IMG/VR virus record: IMGVR_UViG_3300028833_000075
Span: 1 to 64,000 of that record
Origin: a virus
Taxonomy: Duplodnaviria > Caudoviricetes
Length of the DNA: 64,000 nucleotides
Direction: 5' to 3' (one strand)
The notes under the pieces were generated by a model. The model was given only the letters and a program-made list of their open reading frames with translations. It was not told the origin of the DNA and ran no database searches. Position 1 is the stretch's first letter. Every line of letters starts with the position of its first letter. This document shows positions 13,229-22,453 of this stretch, in pieces. The translations under genes were made by a program, and so were the position numbers.

Positions 13229-14344
13229 TCATTTGATTGTGTCCGTGACTGCTTTCAGATCTTCAAGCGGACTGCTTTGATACTGACTGCGAGTAAAATT
13301 GTAATCAGTATGTCCAATCAGCGCAGCTTTATCTCTATCGTCGCCTTGTGCATGCTTGAGTTTATCCGCATAAGTATGCCGGGCAGAATAAGGAACTTTA
13401 CCCCAGATTCCCAATGATTGAGTGATTGGCTTAAAAACAGATTCATTATAATAGTTTGTTGTCATTTTTCGAAATCCAACAAACTCTTTTGTGTGAATCC
13501 GATAACAGTACATTGGAAATAAGTAATCCGTTCCTTCTATATTAATACGCTCTAAAATATAATCAATTATCTGTTTTGGAATAACAACATTTCTGTCGAT
13601 CCCGGCTTCAGTTTTTATGCCTTCTGTAATATAGTAGACTGTTTCGTTGTCAATGACTGTTGATTTAACCTGATCTTTCTTAATTTCAAGAAATTCACCA
13701 GGCCGAAACCCAAGATAGCATTGGCAATATATATACTCAGCATAACGTGTTTTTCCAATTAAACCTTTTATTGCTTCAACTTCAGGCGGAGTCAGCGGGT
13801 GACGTTTTGTTGTTGTGTGTCTCCCTATATATAAGTTATCAGTAACATCCTTCTGAATGATGTTTGCATCTACAGCATATCCCCAGATAAGACCGGCTGT
13901 AACTTTCATTAATTGGTGCGTTCTCTTACCAGCTGGACATTTATCCATGCAAGCTTGCAATTCTGCAGCTGTAATAGTTTCAATTCGTCTGTATTTTAAA
14001 TCTGCAAAATGATTGTATGCTTGTTCGTAACCTAATAATGTTTTAGGTTTGACTCTGTTTTTATAGAATTCTTTCCATTTTTTAAAAACTTCATCTAACA
14101 TGGTAGTATTGACTTTAGGAGATTCACCGTTTAGCAATTTATTAAGTGCAGCTAATGCATCCTTTTTTGTCTTAAAGCCGCTAATTGTTTTCTTGATAGG
14201 AGATACATGTTTTCCTTCTTCTTTAGGCGGCTTCCATCCAACAACGATTTGAGCAATCCAGCATTTTCTGTCTGAGCGATAAAAGACAGATCCTTGTTTA
14301 TTTCCTCTTGACTTCGGTTTGCCCATTATTTGTGCTCCTCTCAT
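13229..14344 (-). CDS. int: tyrosine integrase
   Basis: N-terminal arm-binding region; GFRPGE, IKTEAG, YSARHTY, IGHTD...QY catalytic motifs. Confidence 0.95.
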   Translation of the reverse strand: MRGAQIMGKPKSRGNKQGSVFYRSDRKCWIAQIVVGWKPPKEEGKHVSPIKKTISGFKTKKDALAALNKLLNGESPKVNTTMLDEVFKKWKEFYKNRVKPKTLLGYEQAYNHFADLKYRRIETITAAELQACMDKCPAGKRTHQLMKVTAGLIWGYAVDANIIQKDVTDNLYIGRHTTTKRHPLTPPEVEAIKGLIGKTRYAEYIYCQCYLGFRPGEFLEIKKDQVKSTVIDNETVYYITEGIKTEAGIDRNVVIPKQIIDYILERINIEGTDYLFPMYCYRIHTKEFVGFRKMTTNYYNESVFKPITQSLGIWGKVPYSARHTYADKLKHAQGDDRDKAALIGHTDYNFTRSQYQSSPLEDLKAVTDTIK

Positions 14345-14803: not shown

Positions 14804-15085
14804 ATGAACAAGGTAGAACTGATTGAAAAACTGCAGTACAAAACTAAAACCCCTATTGCCAAAGCCGAAGTAGAACGTATTGTTAATGGATTTATGGACG
14901 AAGTAAAGAATGCTGTTGCCAACGGAGACTCTGTTCAGCTGACTGGATTCGGAACGTTTGAAAATCGTAGGCGTGCTGCTCGTGAAGCACGCAATCCTCA
15001 GACTGGGGAAGCAATTCTGATTCCGGAAAAGAGAGTTCCTGCTTTCAAACCCGGCAAGGCGTTTAAAGATGCTGTAAACAAGTAA
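14804..15085 (+). CDS. hup: HU histone-like DNA-binding protein
   Basis: MNKVELI...GFGTF...RNPQTGE...PAFKPGKAFKDAV. Confidence 0.95.
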   Translation: MNKVELIEKLQYKTKTPIAKAEVERIVNGFMDEVKNAVANGDSVQLTGFGTFENRRRAAREARNPQTGEAILIPEKRVPAFKPGKAFKDAVNK

Positions 15086-15137: not shown

Positions 15138-15165
15138 GGCCCCGTCAAAAGGCGGGGCCTTTCTT
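15138..15165 (+). terminator. intrinsic terminator after HU
   Basis: GGCCCCGTC-AAAA-GGCGGGGCC followed by TTTCTT. Confidence 0.7.
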
Positions 15166-15414
15166 ATGGAGGAAAATAAAATGCATGTAATTACCGCAAG
15201 ATGGAGTAGTAAATCTAGCACTTCTTATATAGCCGGTTTAGAAAAACTATACCAATCTGGAAAAATAACAAAAATTGATTATATTTCTATGAAAGGTGCG
15301 GCGCTAGTAATGCTATTTGGATATCCAGAAAATGAAATCTTAAAATGGATGGAAAAAGAACTATCGCAAATAAAAGAAGGTGAAAAGAATGGCGAATATA
15401 GAGGAAGTAATTAA
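15166..15414 (+). CDS. hypothetical protein
   Basis: 82-aa ORF. Confidence 0.5.
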   Translation: MEENKMHVITARWSSKSSTSYIAGLEKLYQSGKITKIDYISMKGAALVMLFGYPENEILKWMEKELSQIKEGEKNGEYRGSN

Positions 15415-15691
15415 AGGATTAGAATTTTGTGCAAGGCCTGGACTAAAAGGGTGTTTATACGAAACAGATGAATGTCCATATATAAATAACGGATGTAGAC
15501 TACAAATGGAAGCGGATGCTCTTGTATTGCTAAAGGATCAACAAGAAATTGTTAAGTGTAAAGATTGTAAACATCGTGATCCGGAAGACAAAAAATGTGA
15601 TTGTGGACATGCTATCCAATGGCAGTTACCAAGACTTGACAATTGGTACTGTGCAGATGGGGAAAGAAAGGATTTAACAAATGACAACTGA
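15389..15691 (+). CDS. array protein (EVIKGLE-LLKDQ-KCKDC-WYCADG modules)
   Basis: shared modules. Confidence 0.7.
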   Translation: MANIEEVIKGLEFCARPGLKGCLYETDECPYINNGCRLQMEADALVLLKDQQEIVKCKDCKHRDPEDKKCDCGHAIQWQLPRLDNWYCADGERKDLTNDN

Positions 15692-16088
15692 ACGAATGAT
15701 TGAACTGCTGGAGATTGAGCACGAGTGTATGAAACGCGGCGCACACGACGAATGCGACCGGGATTGCGCGAGGTGTGAGCTGGTCCAGGACGATCACGAC
15801 CTGGATGAAATGTACACAGGTGTTATTACCCTGCTGAAAGAGCATGGGGAGCAAATAAAAAACCGTGATGAATCACTCAAAAAAGCACGGGAAGAAATCG
15901 AATGGCTTCGGGGAATACTGAAAGAGCAGGAGCCGATAGAGCCTGTTGATGATGGGCACGGAAGCCTCATTTGTGGTAATCAAGGATACGAGTGTGGATG
16001 TGTTGGAAGGTATAATCTTACAACTAAAGTAGTTGAGAAATACTGCAATTTCTGCCCGGAGTGTGGAAGAAAGGTGAAGTGGGAATGA
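15681..16088 (+). CDS. array protein ending in Zn ribbon CPECGRKVKW
   Basis: two LKE boxes and a C-terminal Zn ribbon. Confidence 0.7.
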   Translation: MTTERMIELLEIEHECMKRGAHDECDRDCARCELVQDDHDLDEMYTGVITLLKEHGEQIKNRDESLKKAREEIEWLRGILKEQEPIEPVDDGHGSLICGNQGYECGCVGRYNLTTKVVEKYCNFCPECGRKVKWE

Positions 16089-16282
16089 AGGAACGTGTTC
16101 CACATATGTGCATTACCTGCCAGCACTATGAACCGTACCATTGCACATTAAATGATGGATACATTGGTTATCTGTACTGTGAGGAACCAACAAAATGCAA
16201 AGCATGGCGTTTGCATGAAAACTATAAAAAAGGTGGAAAGTGGTACGACAGCCGACCGGAAAAAGTGGTGAAGCAAGGATGA
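16085..16282 (+). CDS. small Cys-rich protein
   Basis: starts at junction box GGTGAAGTGGGAATG. Confidence 0.6.
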   Translation: MKERVPHMCITCQHYEPYHCTLNDGYIGYLYCEEPTKCKAWRLHENYKKGGKWYDSRPEKVVKQG

Positions 16283-16416
16283 CTAACAGTGCATTAACAT
16301 GGATGATGAATGACCCGTATTGCATTGTTGCTATAAATGTTGTTGTGATAGGTGGATGCATAGCACTCGCCGTTGATTGTTGGAGAAAATGGCATTAGAA
16401 ATGGTAGTGAAGTGTG

Positions 16417-16575
16417 ATGACATATTGGGATGAATTAACGGAAGAGCAGAAACGGAATTGCTATGAATCATATGTCGGTGATTGTATCTATGAGAACGGA
16501 GATAATGCAACATATTGGTCATATGATGAATGGTGTTCTGAATGCGAAAAATCTGGTGAAGCGTTATTTTTGTAA
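16417..16575 (+). CDS. small acidic protein, 52 aa, absent from the ORF track
   Basis: MTYWDELTEEQKRNCYESY...; preceded by GTGAAGTGTGATG. Confidence 0.5.
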   Translation: MTYWDELTEEQKRNCYESYVGDCIYENGDNATYWSYDEWCSECEKSGEALFL

Positions 16576-16618
16576 AATTGCTGTATAGAATCAATTAACA
16601 TACGAAAAGGGGGCTATA

Positions 16619-16828
16619 ATGTCGTTTAGTGACGCTGTGTTGGCAATGAAACAAGGGAGAAGAGTACGTCTGCCATGGTGGAAAGGATATTGGTACATTG
16701 CCAACGGCACACTCAGAATACATTGCGCTGACGATAGAGACTTCAACGCATTCAGCGCAGAAAACACGGAACCGCTTTATACATTGTCGTTTATGGCGGC
16801 TAATTGCTGGGAAATAGTGCTGGATTAA
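16619..16828 (+). CDS. DUF2829/Tad2-like (Thoeris anti-defence sponge family) protein
   Basis: MSFSDAVLAMKQGRRVRLPWW...AANCWEIV follows the family pattern F..A...K.G..V.R..W...A.DW.IV. Confidence 0.6.
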   Translation: MSFSDAVLAMKQGRRVRLPWWKGYWYIANGTLRIHCADDRDFNAFSAENTEPLYTLSFMAANCWEIVLD

Positions 16829-16969
16829 GTAGCTAAAATTGCTGTTTAATGGCAATACGGAAGCCAAAATCCGGCACCCATCCGGGATAGAAGCGGGGAG
16901 AAGTCGAGAAGCTAACTTGCACTAAGCCGAGCTGGTGAAAGGCCAGCATTTTAAATCTTAAATTGCTGA

Positions 16970-17194
16970 ATGGAGAAGAAAATGACAGGATGGATTAATG
17001 TAAACGATGCATTGCCGAAAAGATGCGAAAATGTTCTTGTTTTTATAGAACACGACGCATGGAAAGACAATAAAAAATATCGAAAAACCGACGTTGGAAT
17101 CGGTTATCAGACAGACGGTTATTGGCATGTTTATGGATTCGCCATGCCTGTCGAGGGACTATATTGGATGAATTTGCCAGAACCGCCAATTTAA
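16970..17194 (+). CDS. DUF551-like protein
   Basis: WINVNDALP...VLV...YWMNLPEPP. Confidence 0.75.
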   Translation: MEKKMTGWINVNDALPKRCENVLVFIEHDAWKDNKKYRKTDVGIGYQTDGYWHVYGFAMPVEGLYWMNLPEPPI

Positions 17195-17393
17195 AGAACT
17201 TAACTTCGCAAAAGGAGCATATTCGGAATCGCAATCTTGCTGTATTACGAAGCGAAAAAAGGGGGTGGCGCTATGCAGAAAGCAGTTGATGAATTTAATA
17301 GCAAATATACTGTTCCTCAGTAGCATTGCCCGGAAATACGGGCATTAACAGATGTAAAGTTGATGTATAGCGAAGCAGTATAAAAAGAGGTAG

Positions 17394-17603
17394 ATTGATA
17401 CGACAACAAAAATAGATGATTTTATCAAAAGAGTTGAATCGACTGCAGAAGAAGATTTCTTTACTCCAAGAACGTTTTATCATCTTTCGTCTTCAATGTT
17501 TCATGAGATGTGCGATCTGCTGAAAGAGCAGGAAAAACAAATCAAAAAATTTGAGTTGGAAAGAAGTTTGGATGAGAGTCCAGACATGATGGGAAAATGG
17601 TGA
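17394..17603 (+). CDS. array protein with LLKEQE box and non-canonical (ATT) or mutated start
   Basis: 70-codon open frame after GAGG, ending at a GGTGAAG box. Confidence 0.4.
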   Translation: MDTTTKIDDFIKRVESTAEEDFFTPRTFYHLSSSMFHEMCDLLKEQEKQIKKFELERSLDESPDMMGKW

Positions 17604-17654
17604 AGTTTGATGAATAAGACAATACAAGGTATGGAAGGAAGGTCGGTGAAGTTA

Positions 17655-17864
17655 ATGACTAAAACGTTTTGCGACAGGTGCGGTAAAGAGATAACGAAAG
17701 AATATGGATGGATCACACATAGGACGTTATATGCAAGTATAAGACTTTTTCCCGGGAAGAAGCATGCCGAATGGTCTGAGCCATTTGATCGATACATATG
17801 CCCGGAATGCGAAGATAGTTATATTCACTGGTTTATGAATCCAGAAACGAAAGACGGGCGGTGA
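17655..17864 (+). CDS. zinc-finger protein (CDRCG...ICPEC)
   Basis: starts at junction box; paralogous to 19711-19923 and 22450-22671. Confidence 0.65.
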   Translation: MTKTFCDRCGKEITKEYGWITHRTLYASIRLFPGKKHAEWSEPFDRYICPECEDSYIHWFMNPETKDGR

Positions 17865-17870
17865 AGTGGG

Positions 17871-18236
17871 ATGCCTGACAGGGAGAAGGTTATTAGAGAT
17901 TTGGAGACATATCGGGACAGGGATTTTATCCGTGAAGGAAAAACTGTTTTTGATAGTGATCCTCGATACAGGAAAATGATAATCAATAATGCAATTGCCA
18001 TTCTGAAAGCGCAGGAATGGATAAGCGTTAAGGACAGACTGCCGAATTGCAACGGATGCTACATTGTATGGAGACCGCATTTTTACCATGATAAAGGTAT
18101 GCCATCTATTTGCTATTTTGACGGGAGCAACACATGGCATGATTCATACGGTGTAGATTTCTCAAGACTACTTGCACCAGAGGACGTGTCGCATTGGAAA
18201 CCATTGCCGGAACAACCTTACAAAGTGGTGAAGTGA
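17871..18236 (+). CDS. array protein: DREKVI module fused to DUF551
   Basis: MPDREKVI...LKAQE-WISVKDRLP...HWKPLPE. Confidence 0.75.
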   Translation: MPDREKVIRDLETYRDRDFIREGKTVFDSDPRYRKMIINNAIAILKAQEWISVKDRLPNCNGCYIVWRPHFYHDKGMPSICYFDGSNTWHDSYGVDFSRLLAPEDVSHWKPLPEQPYKVVK

Positions 18237-18446
18237 ATGGACAGGGAAACTATAATCAAAGCAATTGACATTTGCCTTGGACACGGAAAGTGCAACGATT
18301 GTCCGTATTATTTAGGCGAAAAAGGATGCACAACAATGGATTGTCAAGACTATATGTTACAGGATACTCTTGCCCTGCTGAAAGAGCAACAGAAACTCAT
18401 TGACGACATTACGCGGAGGAGGGTAAACAATGGGGAGTTCGATTGA
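18237..18446 (+). CDS. array protein (DRE-CPY-LLKEQ)
   Basis: shared modules. Confidence 0.7.
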   Translation: MDRETIIKAIDICLGHGKCNDCPYYLGEKGCTTMDCQDYMLQDTLALLKEQQKLIDDITRRRVNNGEFD

Positions 18447-18672
18447 CCGAGAGAAAGTTATTAAAGGACTTGAGCATTGTGAGTTTGGTGGTTCTGGTCC
18501 TTGTTACGAAAATGATTGTCCGTACTATCAAAGTCACGACTGCACAGATGAATTGAGAAATGACATTCTTTCCCTGTTGAAAGAGCAGGAAGCGGTTGAG
18601 CCAAAATACAAAGAACATATGGATGGATTTGTTGCCGGATTTAAAACTGTTTACCGGGAAACCAACTTTTGA
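18430..18672 (+). CDS. array protein (DREKVIKGLE-CPY-LLKEQEAVEP)
   Basis: shared modules. Confidence 0.7.
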   Translation: MGSSIDREKVIKGLEHCEFGGSGPCYENDCPYYQSHDCTDELRNDILSLLKEQEAVEPKYKEHMDGFVAGFKTVYRETNF

Positions 18673-18696
18673 ACAGTGCAAGGAGATGAAGTGTGA

Positions 18697-19002
18697 ATGA
18701 TTGACCGAAAAAAACTAATTAACGAGTTGGAAATACTAAAAAAATGTAACACAAGAAACTGTATTGATTGTGAATTCTGTATTAAAAAACCCGGAAAATT
18801 ATCAATGTGTATGCTTCGGGAATCAATAGACATATATGATGATATAATTATATTTCTGAAAGAACAGCCAGAAATTGTCCCATGTAAGGATTGCAAATTG
18901 AATATTGGGACACCGCACAATCCTATGTGCAAGAAAGATTGCAATAGTCATGAATCGAATTGGTTCTGCGCTGACGGGGAAAGGAAGAGTGATGATGCTT
19001 GA
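18697..19002 (+). CDS. array protein (LKEQ-PCKDC-WFCADG)
   Basis: shared modules. Confidence 0.7.
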   Translation: MIDRKKLINELEILKKCNTRNCIDCEFCIKKPGKLSMCMLRESIDIYDDIIIFLKEQPEIVPCKDCKLNIGTPHNPMCKKDCNSHESNWFCADGERKSDDA

Positions 19003-19201
19003 CAAGGAGAAGGTTATCAAAGACCTTGAGTTTTGTGTGAATGGTCATTTCAAAGTGGAATTATCATTGGCAACAAAAATTCTTGCCCTGCTGAAAGAGC
19101 AGGAAAACGAATATGAAAATGGGTTTAATGACGCTATGCTTGGCAAACAAGAATTGATGTATGAGGGTATAGATGGAAAATGGCACAAGAAGGACTGGTA
19201 A
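18992..19201 (+). CDS. array protein (DKEKVIKDLE-LLKEQE)
   Basis: shared modules. Confidence 0.65.
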   Translation: MMLDKEKVIKDLEFCVNGHFKVELSLATKILALLKEQENEYENGFNDAMLGKQELMYEGIDGKWHKKDW

Positions 19202-19208
19202 AGTGGGA

Positions 19209-19403
19209 ATGAGCGAGTTTATTATGAAAGCAAGCACAGATGAACAGGCAGAGTTTTGCAGACGATACAGTAATATGCAGGAACTTGTCAGGTGCAAGGA
19301 TTGCACTTTGCGGAACGAGATAAACTGTCCGCAGTATTACAGACGGACAGAGATTTCGGACGATTATTTCTGCGCTGACGGGAAACGCAAGGAAGGTCGG
19401 TGA
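19209..19403 (+). CDS. array protein (VRCKDC-YFCADG)
   Basis: shared modules; junction box GGTAAAGTGGGAATG. Confidence 0.65.
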   Translation: MSEFIMKASTDEQAEFCRRYSNMQELVRCKDCTLRNEINCPQYYRRTEISDDYFCADGKRKEGR

Positions 19404-19409
19404 AGTGAA

Positions 19410-19736
19410 ATGAGCCTTGACAGGGAGAAGGTTATCAAAGGGTTAGAATGTTGCACAAACATAAACATGAAGTGCGAAGAAGAAAAATGTCCGTATTGGA
19501 AAAATGATGATTGTAGCGATGACCTTATGCGTGATGCCCTTTCTCTGCTGAAAGAGCATGAAGCTGTTGAGCCAAGACGGGATGCAAATTGCGTGAGGAT
19601 GTTCCGTTGCGGTGCTTGTGGTAAATATGTCGGATTTATTGATTCAGACCCAGGTGATCCTAATGAGCAGGACAATTATTGCAGGAATTGCGGACGGAAG
19701 GTGAAGTGGGATGGCAATTATAAAGCAATGCGATAA
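19410..19736 (+). CDS. array protein (DREKVIKGLE-CPY-LLKEH-Zn ribbon CGRKVKW)
   Basis: shared modules. Confidence 0.7.
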   Translation: MSLDREKVIKGLECCTNINMKCEEEKCPYWKNDDCSDDLMRDALSLLKEHEAVEPRRDANCVRMFRCGACGKYVGFIDSDPGDPNEQDNYCRNCGRKVKWDGNYKAMR

Positions 19737-19923
19737 ATGTAAAACAATCGTTGGTGTCGATGCTTTGATAACGATTAACAGAAAAAGAAAATGCATAAAC
19801 CAACATGATGGCGAGTACATTACAAGCATACAGACAGATTATGACCTTTGTGAAAAATGTGCAAGGGAGATTGAATTACTCTTTATCAGCGTAGAAAAAG
19901 CAGATGAAGTGATTATGACTTAA
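19711..19923 (+). CDS. zinc-finger protein (CDKC...DLCEKC)
   Basis: junction box start. Confidence 0.6.
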   Translation: MAIIKQCDKCKTIVGVDALITINRKRKCINQHDGEYITSIQTDYDLCEKCAREIELLFISVEKADEVIMT

Positions 19924-19947
19924 ATGCTGGAAAGTCGGTAAAATGGA

Positions 19948-20184
19948 ATGGTTGAAGAGCTGAAACCGTACCCGTTCTGCGGAGGGAAAGCGAAAGTAGC
20001 AAAAGTGCATCCTTCTTTCATGCTCAAGAAATTACATGACTTATACTTTGCTGCAGGTTGTCCTCAATGTGGAGCGTCTACAACAATGTTCAGAACAAAG
20101 AAAACTGGATCACCGACGATGAATGAATGGTATGACGGTGAAGCAAAACAAAAAGCAATCAAAACATGGAATAAAAGAGTTTAA
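19948..20184 (+). CDS. Lar-family restriction alleviation-like protein
   Basis: ELKPYPFCGGKA...CPQCGA...AIKTWNKR; first Cys replaced by Tyr. Confidence 0.7.
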   Translation: MVEELKPYPFCGGKAKVAKVHPSFMLKKLHDLYFAAGCPQCGASTTMFRTKKTGSPTMNEWYDGEAKQKAIKTWNKRV

Positions 20185-20199
20185 AGGCGGTGAAATAGG

Positions 20200-20367
20200 A
20201 TGACTGAAACCATTATTATCCTTTGCGCATTGGGAGCAGCAGCAGTTACGTGCATAATTGGGCTTATCGTTGTTACCTTTAGGGAAAAGAAAATAGAAAA
20301 GAAAACAGGAGAAAAGCCTACATATTACAGTGCCGTCGGTAACTGGTTGAGTGGAAGAAGAAGGTAA
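20200..20367 (+). CDS. small membrane protein, 55 aa, absent from the ORF track
   Basis: MTETIIILCALGAAAVTCIIGLIVV TM segment; preceded by GGCGGTGAAATAGGATG. Confidence 0.5.
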   Translation: MTETIIILCALGAAAVTCIIGLIVVTFREKKIEKKTGEKPTYYSAVGNWLSGRRR

Positions 20368-20373
20368 AGTGGA

Positions 20374-20643
20374 ATGACTGAACGGGAGAAAATTATTAGT
20401 GAACTCCAATCTGCTTTGGAATGGTGTCAACCGGAAGACAATCCAAACGGGAGCATTGCAGTGAAAATATGGGCAGCACGTAATGCTATTATCATGCTAA
20501 AAGAGCTGGAGCCAAAGCCTGTAAAAGTATATGACGAATCGTTCTACTTTTGTCCTAAATGCAATCATCAATTTTATGGGTACTATAAAAGGCCAAACTA
20601 TTGTGACAGATGCGGGCAGGCGGTGAAGTGGAATGAGCCTTAA
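20374..20643 (+). CDS. array protein (EREKII-LKE-Zn ribbon CGQAVKW)
   Basis: shared modules. Confidence 0.7.
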   Translation: MTEREKIISELQSALEWCQPEDNPNGSIAVKIWAARNAIIMLKELEPKPVKVYDESFYFCPKCNHQFYGYYKRPNYCDRCGQAVKWNEP

Positions 20644-20962
20644 ATTTGTAAATAGGATTTGCCCGAACTGCAAAAACCCAAACTATATGGTTTTGCTTGG
20701 AGATTTTTCAAAATTATACAAATACAAATGTGTGAATTGCCACAGATACTTTAACGACATTGATTTTGAGAAAGAACCACTTCGGCCTACTTGGAAAATG
20801 GAGTGTATGAATACAAAAGTAGATATGGTTGAAGTGGTTCGGTGCAAAGACTGTATTTTACGTTTTACAGAAAAATGTATATTGCACGATAAGGCATTCC
20901 CAATAAATAAAGGAAACAAATGGTTTTGCGCTGATGGAGAAAGGTCGGCGAATGGAGAATGA
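20633..20962 (+). CDS. array protein (Zn ribbon plus VRCKDC-WFCADG)
   Basis: shared modules. Confidence 0.7.
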   Translation: MSLKFVNRICPNCKNPNYMVLLGDFSKLYKYKCVNCHRYFNDIDFEKEPLRPTWKMECMNTKVDMVEVVRCKDCILRFTEKCILHDKAFPINKGNKWFCADGERSANGE

Positions 20963-21222
20963 TAGTAATAACTACAATGAATTCACTCCCGGAGCATTGT
21001 TATGAATGTCCATGTTATAATAGTGGGAGCTGTTATTGTCAAGCTGATGAAGAACATAAATGTTCTGATTATAGACCTTTCTGGTGTCCGCTGGAAAAAC
21101 AGGACGTTATCGTACATTGCGAAAACTGCTTTTATTATGATCCAGAAACTGGACGATGCGCAAATAAAACTGTACATGGTAATGCAAAAACATGGTTCTG
21201 TGCAGATGGACGAATGCGGTAA
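20959..21222 (+). CDS. array protein (CYECP...CPL plus VHCENC-WFCADG)
   Basis: shared modules. Confidence 0.7.
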   Translation: MIVITTMNSLPEHCYECPCYNSGSCYCQADEEHKCSDYRPFWCPLEKQDVIVHCENCFYYDPETGRCANKTVHGNAKTWFCADGRMR

Positions 21223-21239
21223 TAAGGAGGATTTTAATT

Positions 21240-21698
21240 ATGAAGTTAACTAATATTTTCAAAAGATTCGGTGAATGGGTTAAGGAACTATTTTCAAAGA
21301 AATTTAAATCAACAGAACAGATATATTGGGTTAACCACATCCATGACGAATATGTGAATGCTTCACAAAAATCCGTCGGAATGTATGCCAATGTTCACGG
21401 ATTTGAAGGGCTAAACGATGATGGCAGCTGGACTTACTGGGTCGGTATTGATACACGGTTTATTGGTATTCGCGTTGCAGATATCGTAATCCGGTGTAAG
21501 AATAAGAGTACCTATGATCGTTGGATTTACCAAGCAACTCACGATCTAAACTCCATGCCAAGTGCTGTGCGAAACGATCCTAATCTTTACTGCCGTCTTG
21601 GAGACGATGTTGAAATTGATTTCAAGTTCCGCTGGGGCGACGAAGAGAAACATTTCAACGTAAGGTTCAGTGGCGATAGATATGCCGAAGAAAGGTAA
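21240..21698 (+). CDS. hypothetical protein
   Basis: AAGGAGG RBS before ATG 21240; 152 aa. Confidence 0.65.
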   Translation: MKLTNIFKRFGEWVKELFSKKFKSTEQIYWVNHIHDEYVNASQKSVGMYANVHGFEGLNDDGSWTYWVGIDTRFIGIRVADIVIRCKNKSTYDRWIYQATHDLNSMPSAVRNDPNLYCRLGDDVEIDFKFRWGDEEKHFNVRFSGDRYAEER

Positions 21699-21729
21699 CT
21701 CGCTGTATTACACACCATTTAATGAGTAC

Positions 21730-21885
21730 AAAAAAAAGAAGCCTTTCGGCTTCAATCCTGTCTGGGTAGTGGCCTTCCGGTCGGCTCGGTGTTGCACTGC
21801 TCCATCAGGGGCGCACCCCATAATCTTGCTTCGACAATCATGTTAGGTCTGAAGAGGGATGTTCCATCTGACCTTCACTCCGACA
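21730..21885 (-). ncRNA. stand-alone structured small RNA, ~155 nt, possibly 6S-like
   Basis: TTGCTT-17 bp-(TG)TATCAT promoter at 21919-21891; GC-rich self-complementary body; GAAGCC-GAAA-GGCTTC-U8 terminator; no credible ORF. Confidence 0.6.
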
Positions 21886-22084
21886 CAAAGATGATACCAC
21901 AAAACAAACAAGCAAGCAACTGAAAGTTGCTGCTTTATAAAGTAATGCCGGGCGATAGCAACCAAGAGTTTATTTTTAATACTAACATGATGATACCAAA
22001 AGATAAAGATGTTGAAGATTTTCTAAAAGATCTTGCAGAAAAAGAAAACATCAAATTGGACAAAGCCTCTTAAAGGAGTTATAC

Positions 22085-22453
22085 ATGACGAAAGACTTAG
22101 AACTACTTCAAGAATGGAAACAACGGTTAGGACTTCAGAACTGGCAGATAACATTAACCGACAATGTTGATCCTGAAGATATGACAGTCAAAGACGCAAT
22201 GGGCTGCACAAGCTATCAGGAAGTCATGAGAACAGCTTCTATTCAGATTATTAATCCTGAAAAGATCGAAGAAACACTCAGACCATTTGATTATGAAGAG
22301 ACACTTGTACATGAATTGCTTCATTTAAAACTTGGTCTTCTTGAACGAGGTACTGACTGGGACAACAAACTTCAATTGAGAGTTCTTCATATGATTATTG
22401 ACGATCTTGCTCGTGCATTAGTCGACGCAAAAAGAAATGGAGGATCCAAATGA
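22085..22453 (+). CDS. HExxH zinc-metallopeptidase-like protein
   Basis: ETLVHELLHL motif. Confidence 0.65.
   Translation: MTKDLELLQEWKQRLGLQNWQITLTDNVDPEDMTVKDAMGCTSYQEVMRTASIQIINPEKIEETLRPFDYEETLVHELLHLKLGLLERGTDWDNKLQLRVLHMIIDDLARALVDAKRNGGSK

Follow-up and report, generated by a model that had tools for sequence, protein, structure and literature searches.

The window analysed here comprises the first 64 kb (positions 1 to 64,000) of the IMG/VR virus record IMGVR_UViG_3300028833_000075, a caudoviricete genome of 150,578 bp with direct terminal repeats and a completeness rating of 100%. Between 15.4 and 21.2 kb its + strand carries an array of about 22 closely packed or overlapping genes of 35–135 codons, which share short DNA boxes at frequencies far above chance, as had been proposed in an initial annotation made from the letters of the window alone. 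Two classes of box can be distinguished: a junction box, which comprises a ribosome-binding site, spacer and start codon, and in-frame boxes that encode conserved peptides, above all LLKEQ. The boxes are conserved as nucleotides, the similarity between phages breaks at them and the length of the array differs among relatives. The small proteins appear to be assembled from a pool of modules common to many phages through homology-guided recombination at these short boxes; to this explanation taken as a whole, in which the phage would be a temperate one of rumen Clostridia, with a complete genome of 150 kb, and the array its hyperplastic region of accessory genes, we assign a probability of about 0.72.

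Several relatives serve for comparison. G001 (148 kb, complete) and G002 are collinear with this phage, with flanking genes 67–79% identical, and their arrays follow the same box grammar and have few genes orthologous to those described here. L209 is closer: its homologue of gene 21192–21698 is 93% identical in protein. The features of the region are listed below; N-modules precede and C-modules follow the LLKEQ box.

13229–14344, − strand: tyrosine-type integrase gene, 5′ of the array.
14804–15085: HU-like gene, between the integrase gene and the array.
15389–15691, + strand: gene joining an N-module (EEVIKGLE..CPY..LLKDQ) to a CKDC..YCADG module.
15681–16088, + strand: gene with two LLKEQ boxes (15831, 15915) flanking a coiled-coil insert, and a Zn-ribbon end (..CGRKVKWE) whose KVKW codons contain junction box 16073.
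16085–16828, + strand: four small genes (starts at 16085, 16240, 16414 and 16619) without box-type modules.
16970–17194, + strand: DUF551 gene (Pfam 35.6 bits, cut-off 22).
17496–17603, + strand: short gene consisting of a LLKEQ box (17517) and tail only, its N-module truncated.
17599–17657, + strand: tandem junction boxes 45 nt apart, GGTGAAGTTTGATG and GGTCGGTGAAGTTAATG, 5′ of gene 17610/17655–17864.
17610–17864, + strand: Cys-rich gene, 90% identical in DNA to L209, the similarity stopping in junction box 17860; translation probably begins at the ATG at 17655, as it does in the L209 orthologue.
17860–17873, + strand: junction box GGTGAAGTGGGATG, with the stop codon of the upstream gene inside.
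17871–18236, + strand: gene with a DREKVI N-box and an ILKAQ box joined to DUF551 (residues 49–116, 40.9 bits, cut-off 22).
18237–18446, + strand: gene with an N-module and a short tail; junction box 18227 lies directly 5′.
18430–18672, + strand: gene with an N-module and the frameshifted remnant of a longer C-module.
18697–19002, + strand: gene with an N-module and CKDC..WFCADGERK.
18995–19201, + strand: gene with a Cys-less N-module and a short tail.
19197–19403, + strand: junction box and free-standing CKDC..FCADG gene (19209–19403).
19399–19736, + strand: junction box and gene 19410–19736, with an N-module (helix, Cys loop, helix), LLKEH and a Zn ribbon (..CGRKVKW) whose KVKW codons contain junction box 19700.
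19711–19923, + strand: small Cys-rich gene starting at junction box 19700.
19937–20184, + strand: non-coding junction box and Lar restriction-alleviation gene (19948–20184).
20200–20367, + strand: small membrane-type gene, 73% identical to a gene in the G001 and G002 arrays.
20363–20643, + strand: junction box and gene 20374–20643, with an EREKII N-box, an MLKEL box and a Zn ribbon (..CGQAVKW) that contains junction box 20622.
20633–20962, + strand: gene with a Zn-ribbon N-part and VRCKDC..WFCADGER, with a degenerate junction box (about 20945) at its end.
20959–21222, + strand: gene joining a second type of N-module (MP..C..CP..WCPL) to HCENC..WFCADG, a C-module missing from the L209 and G001 orthologues.

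Terminator-like sites on the + strand of the array region were found only at 15138 and 16931, with none in a scan of 16947–22200, and the array is therefore mostly one operon; promoter-like sites showed no clear excess (29 versus 21.3 ± 4.9 in shuffles). No convincing + strand gene was seen at 17195–17495. The DNA at 17398–17534, which reaches into this interval, is 78–80% identical to G001 and G002 and overlaps a 62-codon open reading frame (ORF) on the − strand (17295–17483), which has protein matches of about 40% in G001 and G002; the interval 17195–17495 could be a regulatory region or a small antisense gene.

The junction box has the consensus (A/C)GGTGAAGTGG(G/A)ATG(A) and precedes at least 13 gene starts. 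Its core GGTRAARTG occurs 10 times in the window, compared with 2.17 ± 1.35 in 100 shuffles (maximum 6), and nine of the copies lie on the + strand of the array within 4.6 kb, at 16073, 17860, 18227, 19197, 19399, 19700, 19937, 20363 and 20622. All of these except 19937 had been listed in the initial annotation, which also placed a box at 17645; the latter is a GGTGAAGTT variant. Over all 150 kb of the genome there are 15 copies, of which 13 lie on the + strand: the nine in this first array, two at about 112.5 kb and two at 129.7 kb. Three of the boxes (16073, 19700 and 20622) are read as the codons of the ..KVKW that ends a Zn ribbon, two (17860 and 19399) contain the stop codon of the upstream gene (CGG TGA) in another frame, 19197 and 20363 have a TAA stop in the frame of those stops, and the boxes at 19937 and 20185 are non-coding. 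Because the same box is read in two frames or not at all, it is the nucleotides and not a peptide that are conserved. A GGTGA Shine–Dalgarno sequence stands 5–7 nt 5′ of the ATG, with overlapping stop and start codons, and the initial annotation had named a plain Shine–Dalgarno sequence of this kind as the alternative to a recombination box. The box is more than that, given that its spacer is kept in both frames and in non-coding DNA and that GGTGA-type sites are concentrated in the arrays: 13 of the 21 in the genome lie within the two arrays, which make up 6% of it, whereas 64–67 AGGAG/GGAGG sites lie outside the arrays and 2–3 within. The junction box is an array-specific ribosome site and not the ordinary one of this phage. 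The wider pool gave 138 instances of GGTRAARTG-type junctions across at least 119 related loci plus this genome; where the box encodes VKW, GTG is used in 82 of 89 cases and AAG in 72 of 89, and the control motif CPY is weakly biased.

The second main box, CTG CTG AAA GAG CAG (GAA), encodes LLKEQ(E) and closes the second helix of the N-module, at a predicted domain boundary. Its 14-mer CTGCTGAAAGAGCA, with at most two mismatches, was found eight times against 0.50 expected, seven times in the array on the + strand; together with 11 LLKEQ-like copies at the amino-acid level, this agrees with the roughly ten copies in nearly identical codons that had been described. The − strand has no exact LLKEQ box anywhere in the genome. 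Both DREKVI and FCADG also recur as first described: GACAGGGAGAAGGTTAT is present in two exact copies and one with a single mismatch, and TTCTGCGCTGACGG in two exact copies in the window with a third at 112141. When the 22 proteins were kept and every codon was redrawn from the array's own usage (300 trials, overlapping gene ends trimmed), different genes shared 13.7 12-mers on average (maximum 31) against 41 in the real DNA, and 4.0 14-mers (maximum 26) against 28. The repeats thus reside in the DNA itself and do not merely follow from the proteins. This does not extend equally to all boxes. Within this genome VRCKDC and FCADG vary at synonymous sites and are mostly amino-acid motifs, so that the claim of shared DNA boxes holds for the junction and LLKEQ boxes but mostly not for these two, which in the wider pool (FCADGER and VRCKDC) show moderate codon-level conservation.

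Two collections of related loci allowed codon usage to be followed beyond this phage. Set A was gathered with the exact 17-mer CTGCTGAAAGAGCAGGA, present in at least 119 IMG/VR contigs and often two or three times per locus; set B consists of 79 loci retrieved with a peptide pattern from the end of the Zn ribbon, chosen to avoid circularity, with 62 unique LLKEQ proteins. In set B the two leucines are encoded by CTG in 77% and 87% of cases (background 39%), lysine by AAA in 92% (background 48%), glutamate by GAG in 90% (background 43%) and glutamine by CAG in 76% (background 64%), and the glutamate that follows is encoded by GAA in 78% (background 57%), the synonym opposite to that of the preceding GAG. 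The full 15-mer is identical in 31 of the 62 proteins, compared with about 2% expected from codon usage, and the conservation therefore goes beyond the amino acids, which had been named as the other way in which the boxes might be explained. The 15-mer (for example at 15831–15845, 17517–17531 and 19088–19102) is also a perfect 5-bp palindrome with a 5-nt loop, CTGCT-GAAAG-AGCAG; a hairpin or dimer-binding role was considered and dropped, as 90 natural variants break its pairs without compensating changes. Five public proteins (P0121, P0126, P0132, P0133 and P0136) carry an N-terminal extension ending ..SALTGKGKQIM, which is the +1 frame of an upstream FCADGERK box; it follows that the junction from FCADG to the next start is also conserved as DNA and that gene callers misplace starts in such arrays.

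Break points at the LLKEQ box were examined by comparing all pairs of box instances from different loci, with 150-nt flanks and gapped local alignment. Across about 200 IMG/VR loci, one side of the box is 85–100% identical and the other unrelated in about 85–90% of informative pairs. In set A, seven pairs were similar on both sides, 23 only upstream and 43 only downstream (66 of 73 one-sided); in set B, eight were similar on both sides, one was intermediate, 19 were similar only upstream and 28 only downstream (47 of 56 one-sided). The joints are precise: alignments end 0–9 nt past the box in 21 of 23 pairs and start within −12 to +7 nt of it in 42 of 43. When the anchor was slid along the gene, discordance was near zero 40–60 nt inside the N-module, reached its maximum at the LLKEQ box and climbed again about 100 nt upstream of the box, at the gene start. 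At the level of DNA clusters, 15 of 20 N-side clusters had more than one C-side partner and 20 of 25 C-side clusters more than one N-side partner, and when the 181 unique box-bearing proteins were sorted by their parts, 53 N-part and 36 C-part families emerged, in 81 combinations. The N-module of gene 18430 alone is joined, at 74–90% identity, to more than ten different C-parts in public proteins. Individual cases illustrate the pattern. The whole N-module at 18995–19105, which begins with the start codon and finishes with the final base of the LLKEQ box, is 93% identical to that of locus L026; past the box a short tail follows in this phage and a Zn ribbon in L026; 19189–19305 is 94% identical to L003 from the junction box through to the CKDC box; and L004 and L008 share a 433-nt block, 100% identical between two LLKEQ boxes, which holds a C-module, a junction and an N-module. 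L010 has only the N-module of that block (97%), and L004, L008 and L010 each run into a different C-module. Module swaps and changes in array length, and not a fixed gene order, are therefore what the relatives present, and the comparison supports, by sequence and not by experiment, the proposal that recombination at the boxes generates chimeric proteins.

The junction boxes behave in the same way. Their flanks were discordant in 26 of 28 pairs, compared with 10 of 27 at generic GGAGG ribosome sites (Fisher p about 1e-5); since locus pairs are not phylogenetically independent, this p-value and the pair counts are descriptive and are not formal tests. Where a block of at least 90% identity stops inside a locus, the stop coincides with a box in 34% of cases in set B and 51% in set A, compared with about 6% for random positions taken from the same loci; for junction boxes the enrichment is 4.5-fold in set B and 7.5-fold in set A. 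Differences in array length, as had been proposed, are seen among the relatives. The distance from the HU gene to the same downstream conserved gene is 9.8 kb here and 14.6 kb in G001. Homologues of genes 15681, 17607, 20959 and 21192 stand side by side in L209, relative to which this phage has an extra 1.5 kb (7 genes) and an extra 3.1 kb (12 genes), with ends in junction boxes; the 3.1-kb difference has its left end in junction box 17860 and its right end in the degenerate box at about 20945, and the 1.5-kb stretch that L209 lacks, from 16085 to 17607, includes the four genes without box-type modules. Possible scars of such events can also be recognized. The tandem junction boxes at 17599–17657 are possibly the scar of a lost cassette. 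The 28-residue coiled-coil insert between the two LLKEQ boxes of gene 15681–16088 is missing from G001 (13829–14146) and L209 (9128–9460), a difference of the kind expected from unequal exchange between boxes and a probable scar. At 18596–18700 a different frame holds an ORF for ..KLFTGKPTFEQCKEMKCE, which is how a C-module ends that public homologues have in intact form (P0123 ends ..KLFTGKPTFEQCKAVKWDD), so that the tail of gene 18430–18672 looks like a deleted, frameshifted remnant, after which comes a degenerate junction box. A 12.7-kb ENA contig represents a strain-level relative with close variants of three of the array genes.

The modules themselves are true families. The joining of N-modules to a Zn ribbon, a CKDC..FCADG module, DUF551 or a short tail, as first described, was confirmed by alignment (A1) and Pfam. 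In an alignment of 52 homologues (A3), conservation is seen in the helices EKVIKGLE and DAL.LLKEQEAVEP and, separately, in the C-module, while the 20–40 residues between the two helices are unrelated among the homologues, some Cys-rich and some without Cys. An AlphaFold2 (AF2) model of the protein of gene 19410–19736 (predicted local distance difference test, pLDDT, 87.7) places EKVIKGLE in helix 5–16, followed by a Cys-rich loop, and ends helix 35–49 in LLKEH, followed by the Zn ribbon; in this model the boxes encode the two helices of a hairpin, with LLKEQ at the domain boundary. A second AF2 model has a pLDDT of 89.0. With these two models Foldseek returned no match in the PDB at E ≤ 0.001 and a wide VIA-align search gave only generic helical hairpins (Z ≤ 4.4); Pfam and PHROGs hold no family for the N-module or the CKDC..FCADG module, and the ESM Atlas returned unnamed viral clusters only.

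As for function, the Lar-like and Tad2-like genes noticed at first fared differently. Lar (PF14354) is well matched at 19948–20184 (34.2 bits versus a cut-off of 28.6, profile positions 1–57 of 58; also PHROG 599) and again at genome position 113501–113722 (36.4 bits, above the Pfam cut-off), but Tad2 (PF11195) at 16619–16828 reaches only 17.7 bits against a cut-off of 25, residues 1–28 matching profile positions 1–30 of 73. DUF551 (PF04448) contributes two domains above its cut-off of 22 (35.6 and 40.9 bits). The suggested role in anti-defence or host takeover is therefore a weak hint and a guess, with two Lar genes that pass the Pfam cut-off and a Tad2-like match that fails it. The array proteins have 60–135 aa and no match to a structural-protein family, and their genes adjoin the integrase and HU genes. 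There is roughly one chance in three that they are early accessory binders, for example in anti-defence or host takeover, a view based on the integrase neighbourhood, on how small the proteins are, on their zinc-type motifs and on a conserved stem that carries variable inserts.

In the mechanism that we favour, crossovers at junction boxes would move, insert or delete whole genes while keeping translational coupling. The in-frame boxes would be the EKVIKGLE codons, with which the N-module opens, and chiefly the LLKEQ(E) codons, where a crossover could join any N-module to any C-module with frame and fold intact. The moving unit would be anything between two boxes, even across a gene boundary. 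The exchange would be homologous, by crossover or copy choice, among co-infecting phages and prophages, and break-and-join would be carried out by phage or host recombinases on 14–25 nt of identity. Such a mechanism is in keeping with experiments in which Rad52-like phage recombinases proved far more effective than RecA on sequences that are short and diverged (De Paepe et al., 2014, PMC3945230).

A number of points weigh against this mechanism. All of the evidence is comparative and comes from metagenome-assembled genomes, and recombination itself is inferred from it; the locus pairs, as said, are not phylogenetically independent. Gene ends and domain linkers are also the places where selection keeps random joints, so the position of the break points alone is no proof that homology caused the joints. 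An identity of 14–25 nt is short for RecA-type recombination, and RecT, ERF, RecA and AAA_24 are absent from the phage, which has no clear recombinase. The genome ORF 137,932–138,714 (260 codons) gives Rad52-clan matches that are sub-threshold (Rad52_Rad22 14.5–15.4 bits, Mgm101p 15.4 bits) and matches PHROG 7838, annotated 'exonuclease', at E 2.7e-32; this sole recombinase lead in the phage is a candidate for a protein of single-strand annealing. No pair of paralogues in this genome is similar beyond the boxes, and recent shuffling inside this genome is thus not shown. Finally, none of Pfam, PHROGs, Foldseek, VIA-align and the ESM Atlas gives a useful function for the array proteins.

Among the other explanations, the one to be taken most seriously is that the boxes are kept for expression or folding only, and that joints arise by illegitimate recombination anywhere, selection keeping those at gene ends and linkers. 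The junction box would then be an efficient, translationally coupled ribosome site, the LLKEQ codons would serve some feature of RNA or translation, and the homology of the boxes would have no causal role. The GGTGA Shine–Dalgarno sequence of the junction box, 5–7 nt before the ATG, and the overlapping stop and start codons are compatible with this, as are the mosaic flanks of generic gene boundaries (10 of 27 pairs), the position of LLKEQ at a predicted domain boundary and its palindrome, which might in principle act as RNA or be recognized by a protein. However, the joints are in register, 63 of 66 being no more than a few bases away from a 14-nt box, and are not scattered with insertions and deletions; discordance is 93% at junction boxes versus 37% at generic ribosome sites; no translational reason is known for five fixed codons with opposite synonyms at adjacent glutamates; and variants of the palindrome break its pairs without compensation. 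We regard this explanation as unlikely. A dedicated machinery seems less probable still: a box-specific nuclease, recombinase or copy-choice mechanism, giving programmed cassette exchange as in integrons or shufflons, would account for the striking uniformity of the boxes across many phages and for the palindromic LLKEQ box, and HNH-type endonuclease genes do occur elsewhere in the phage. Against it, Pfam and PHROGs reveal no recombinase or nuclease gene associated with the arrays, and the boxes are all direct repeats on one strand, which leaves no inversion switch; moreover, the array-adjacent integrase is only 24% identical in G001, though the box grammar there is the same. Such a mechanism is very unlikely.

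The remaining two explanations are both highly improbable. An ordinary family of paralogues, formed by tandem duplication and divergence, would leave the slowest amino-acid motifs and codon bias as apparent boxes; the modules are indeed true families with conserved Cys and helix motifs, and CKDC and FCADG vary at synonymous sites in this genome, but the codon identity of the boxes is far above codon bias, one side of a box can be 97–100% identical with a different fold on the other, and gene order and content differ among collinear relatives. Assembly chimeras, produced by short-read assemblers crossing between phages at repeated boxes, have to be considered since the relatives are all metagenome assemblies, the boxes are repeats common to co-occurring phages, and a misjoin at an in-frame box would keep the frame open. 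The boxes, at about 14–25 nt, are shorter than the usual final k-mers of assemblers, which speaks against such misjoins. Nine of the ten array proteins examined recur exactly on 2–5 contigs (NCBI, JGI, Logan, ENA), including an independent contig of 150,566 bp, so the fusions of this genome are not the chimeras of one assembler. In addition, the genomes of this phage (G000) and of G001 are complete, have terminal repeats and are collinear in their flanks, and the matching sides are often 85–97% and not 100% identical, which a misjoin within a sample does not explain. Homology-guided exchange at the boxes is thus the reading that we retain. A further step, which we consider rather unlikely, would be that the boxes form a shared grammar with which the phage community of rumen Clostridia runs a combinatorial library of small binders against fast-evolving host targets, defence systems among them. 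The conserved two-helix stem would then show a variable, often zinc-binding insert and be joined to interchangeable effector or anchor modules, and box identity would be kept since modules with consensus boxes spread by recombination, which would amount to selection for exchangeability at synonymous sites.

The same boxes and module families occur in a second, smaller array of the same genome, at about 111.4–113.7 kb, which also has a Lar gene. Its features, in genome positions, are the following.

110283–113722: second-array region, with three CKDC..FCADG genes, one N-module gene and the second Lar gene (36.4 bits).
112000 and 112603: LLKEQ boxes.
111824, 112141 and 112768: FCADG boxes.
112463 and 112790: junction boxes.

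The stretch 128250–130700 holds four tRNA genes (Ser-TGA, Thr-TGT twice and Gln-TTG) and, after them, a further run of small Cys-rich genes, and the GGTRAARTG-type junctions at 129657 and 129827 are used by two small Cys-rich genes 3′ of the tRNAs. As to the host, a composite DNA pattern search of cellular genomes returned six contigs, three of which belong to rumen or uncultured Clostridia/Lachnospiraceae metagenome-assembled genomes; the other three are proteobacterial and were taken as chance matches (about two expected by our own estimate). A blastn search of the array against 50,697 GenBank phages gave no match, nor did a protein-pattern search of GTDB genomes with one array protein, and a literature search for the box motifs returned nothing relevant.

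Whether phage mosaicism comes from homology-guided exchange at short linkers or from random joints sorted by selection is a long-debated question. This system offers an unusually clean natural test of it, with a 15-base in-frame box and a 14-base junction box reused hundreds of times and with synonymous sites in the boxes that can be recoded without changing the protein; its interest lies in this regularity and in how directly it can be tested. Additionally, it would represent a counterpart of exon shuffling, at the level of domains, in proteins of bacterial viruses other than tail fibres. It draws attention to large unannotated modules that are common in rumen viromes (the EKVIKGLE..LLKEQ hairpin, the CKDC..FCADG module and the ..CGxxVKW ribbon), for which the boxes may be used as anchors to amplify and catalogue the pool. 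In annotating arrays of this kind, wrongly called starts and small ORFs that look chimeric are to be expected.

The closest precedents are the promoter-early stem-loop (PeSL) cassettes and the tail-fibre motif swaps of T4-type phages, which the array matches in behaviour but to neither of which it belongs. PeSL cassettes occupy the hyperplastic regions of T4-type phages, where adjacent motifs exchange with one another to form mini-circles that are encapsidated (Arbiol et al., 2010, PMC2839356; Comeau et al., 2014, PMC4122927). In PeSL regions and in this array alike, a short conserved nucleotide motif with a role in expression is repeated between small non-essential genes of a plastic region, and insertions, deletions and replacements among related phages end in the motif. 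However, PeSLs are promoter and terminator units (a sigma-70 early promoter and a stem-loop) of Gram-negative lytic myoviruses, whereas the intergenic motif here is a box of ribosome site and start codon inside one long operon, and a second class of box lies within reading frames and would swap protein domains. With respect to tail fibres, work by Tetart and colleagues from 1998 is said to have placed the His boxes of gp37 in conserved-motif recombination. The gp38 adhesin of T-even phages has glycine-rich motifs and also undergoes conserved-motif recombination (Trojet et al., 2011, PMC3157838). There as here, in-frame conserved motifs divide variable segments and would ease in-frame swaps between phages. 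On the other hand, the tail-fibre proteins are virion adhesins that set host range by swapping specificity segments, unlike the Cys-rich proteins of 60–135 aa described here, which are non-structural and presumably early, which exchange whole domains of different folds and whose cassettes may cross gene boundaries.

The array also resembles integrons, in that small promoter-less genes on the same strand vary in number and are separated by a recurring junction site; however, there is no integron integrase and no attC-type imperfect palindrome at the junctions, the boxes are 14–17 nt long and partly coding, and exchange also takes place inside genes. Shufflons and invertible segments differ from the direct repeats found here, where the − strand holds 2 of 15 junction boxes and no exact LLKEQ box. 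Lambdoid phages, finally, are the subject of the modular theory, with its boundary sequences. More generally, phage mosaicism is attributed to homologous recombination that is relaxed enough to act where homology is short or diverged (De Paepe et al., 2014, PMC3945230), and the array would share with it the exchange at short patches of similarity in otherwise unrelated phage DNA that gives rise to mosaic genomes. Nevertheless, the patches of lambdoid phages are occasional and heterogeneous, whereas here one vocabulary of boxes, with near-fixed codons, recurs dozens of times per genome and across hundreds of contigs.

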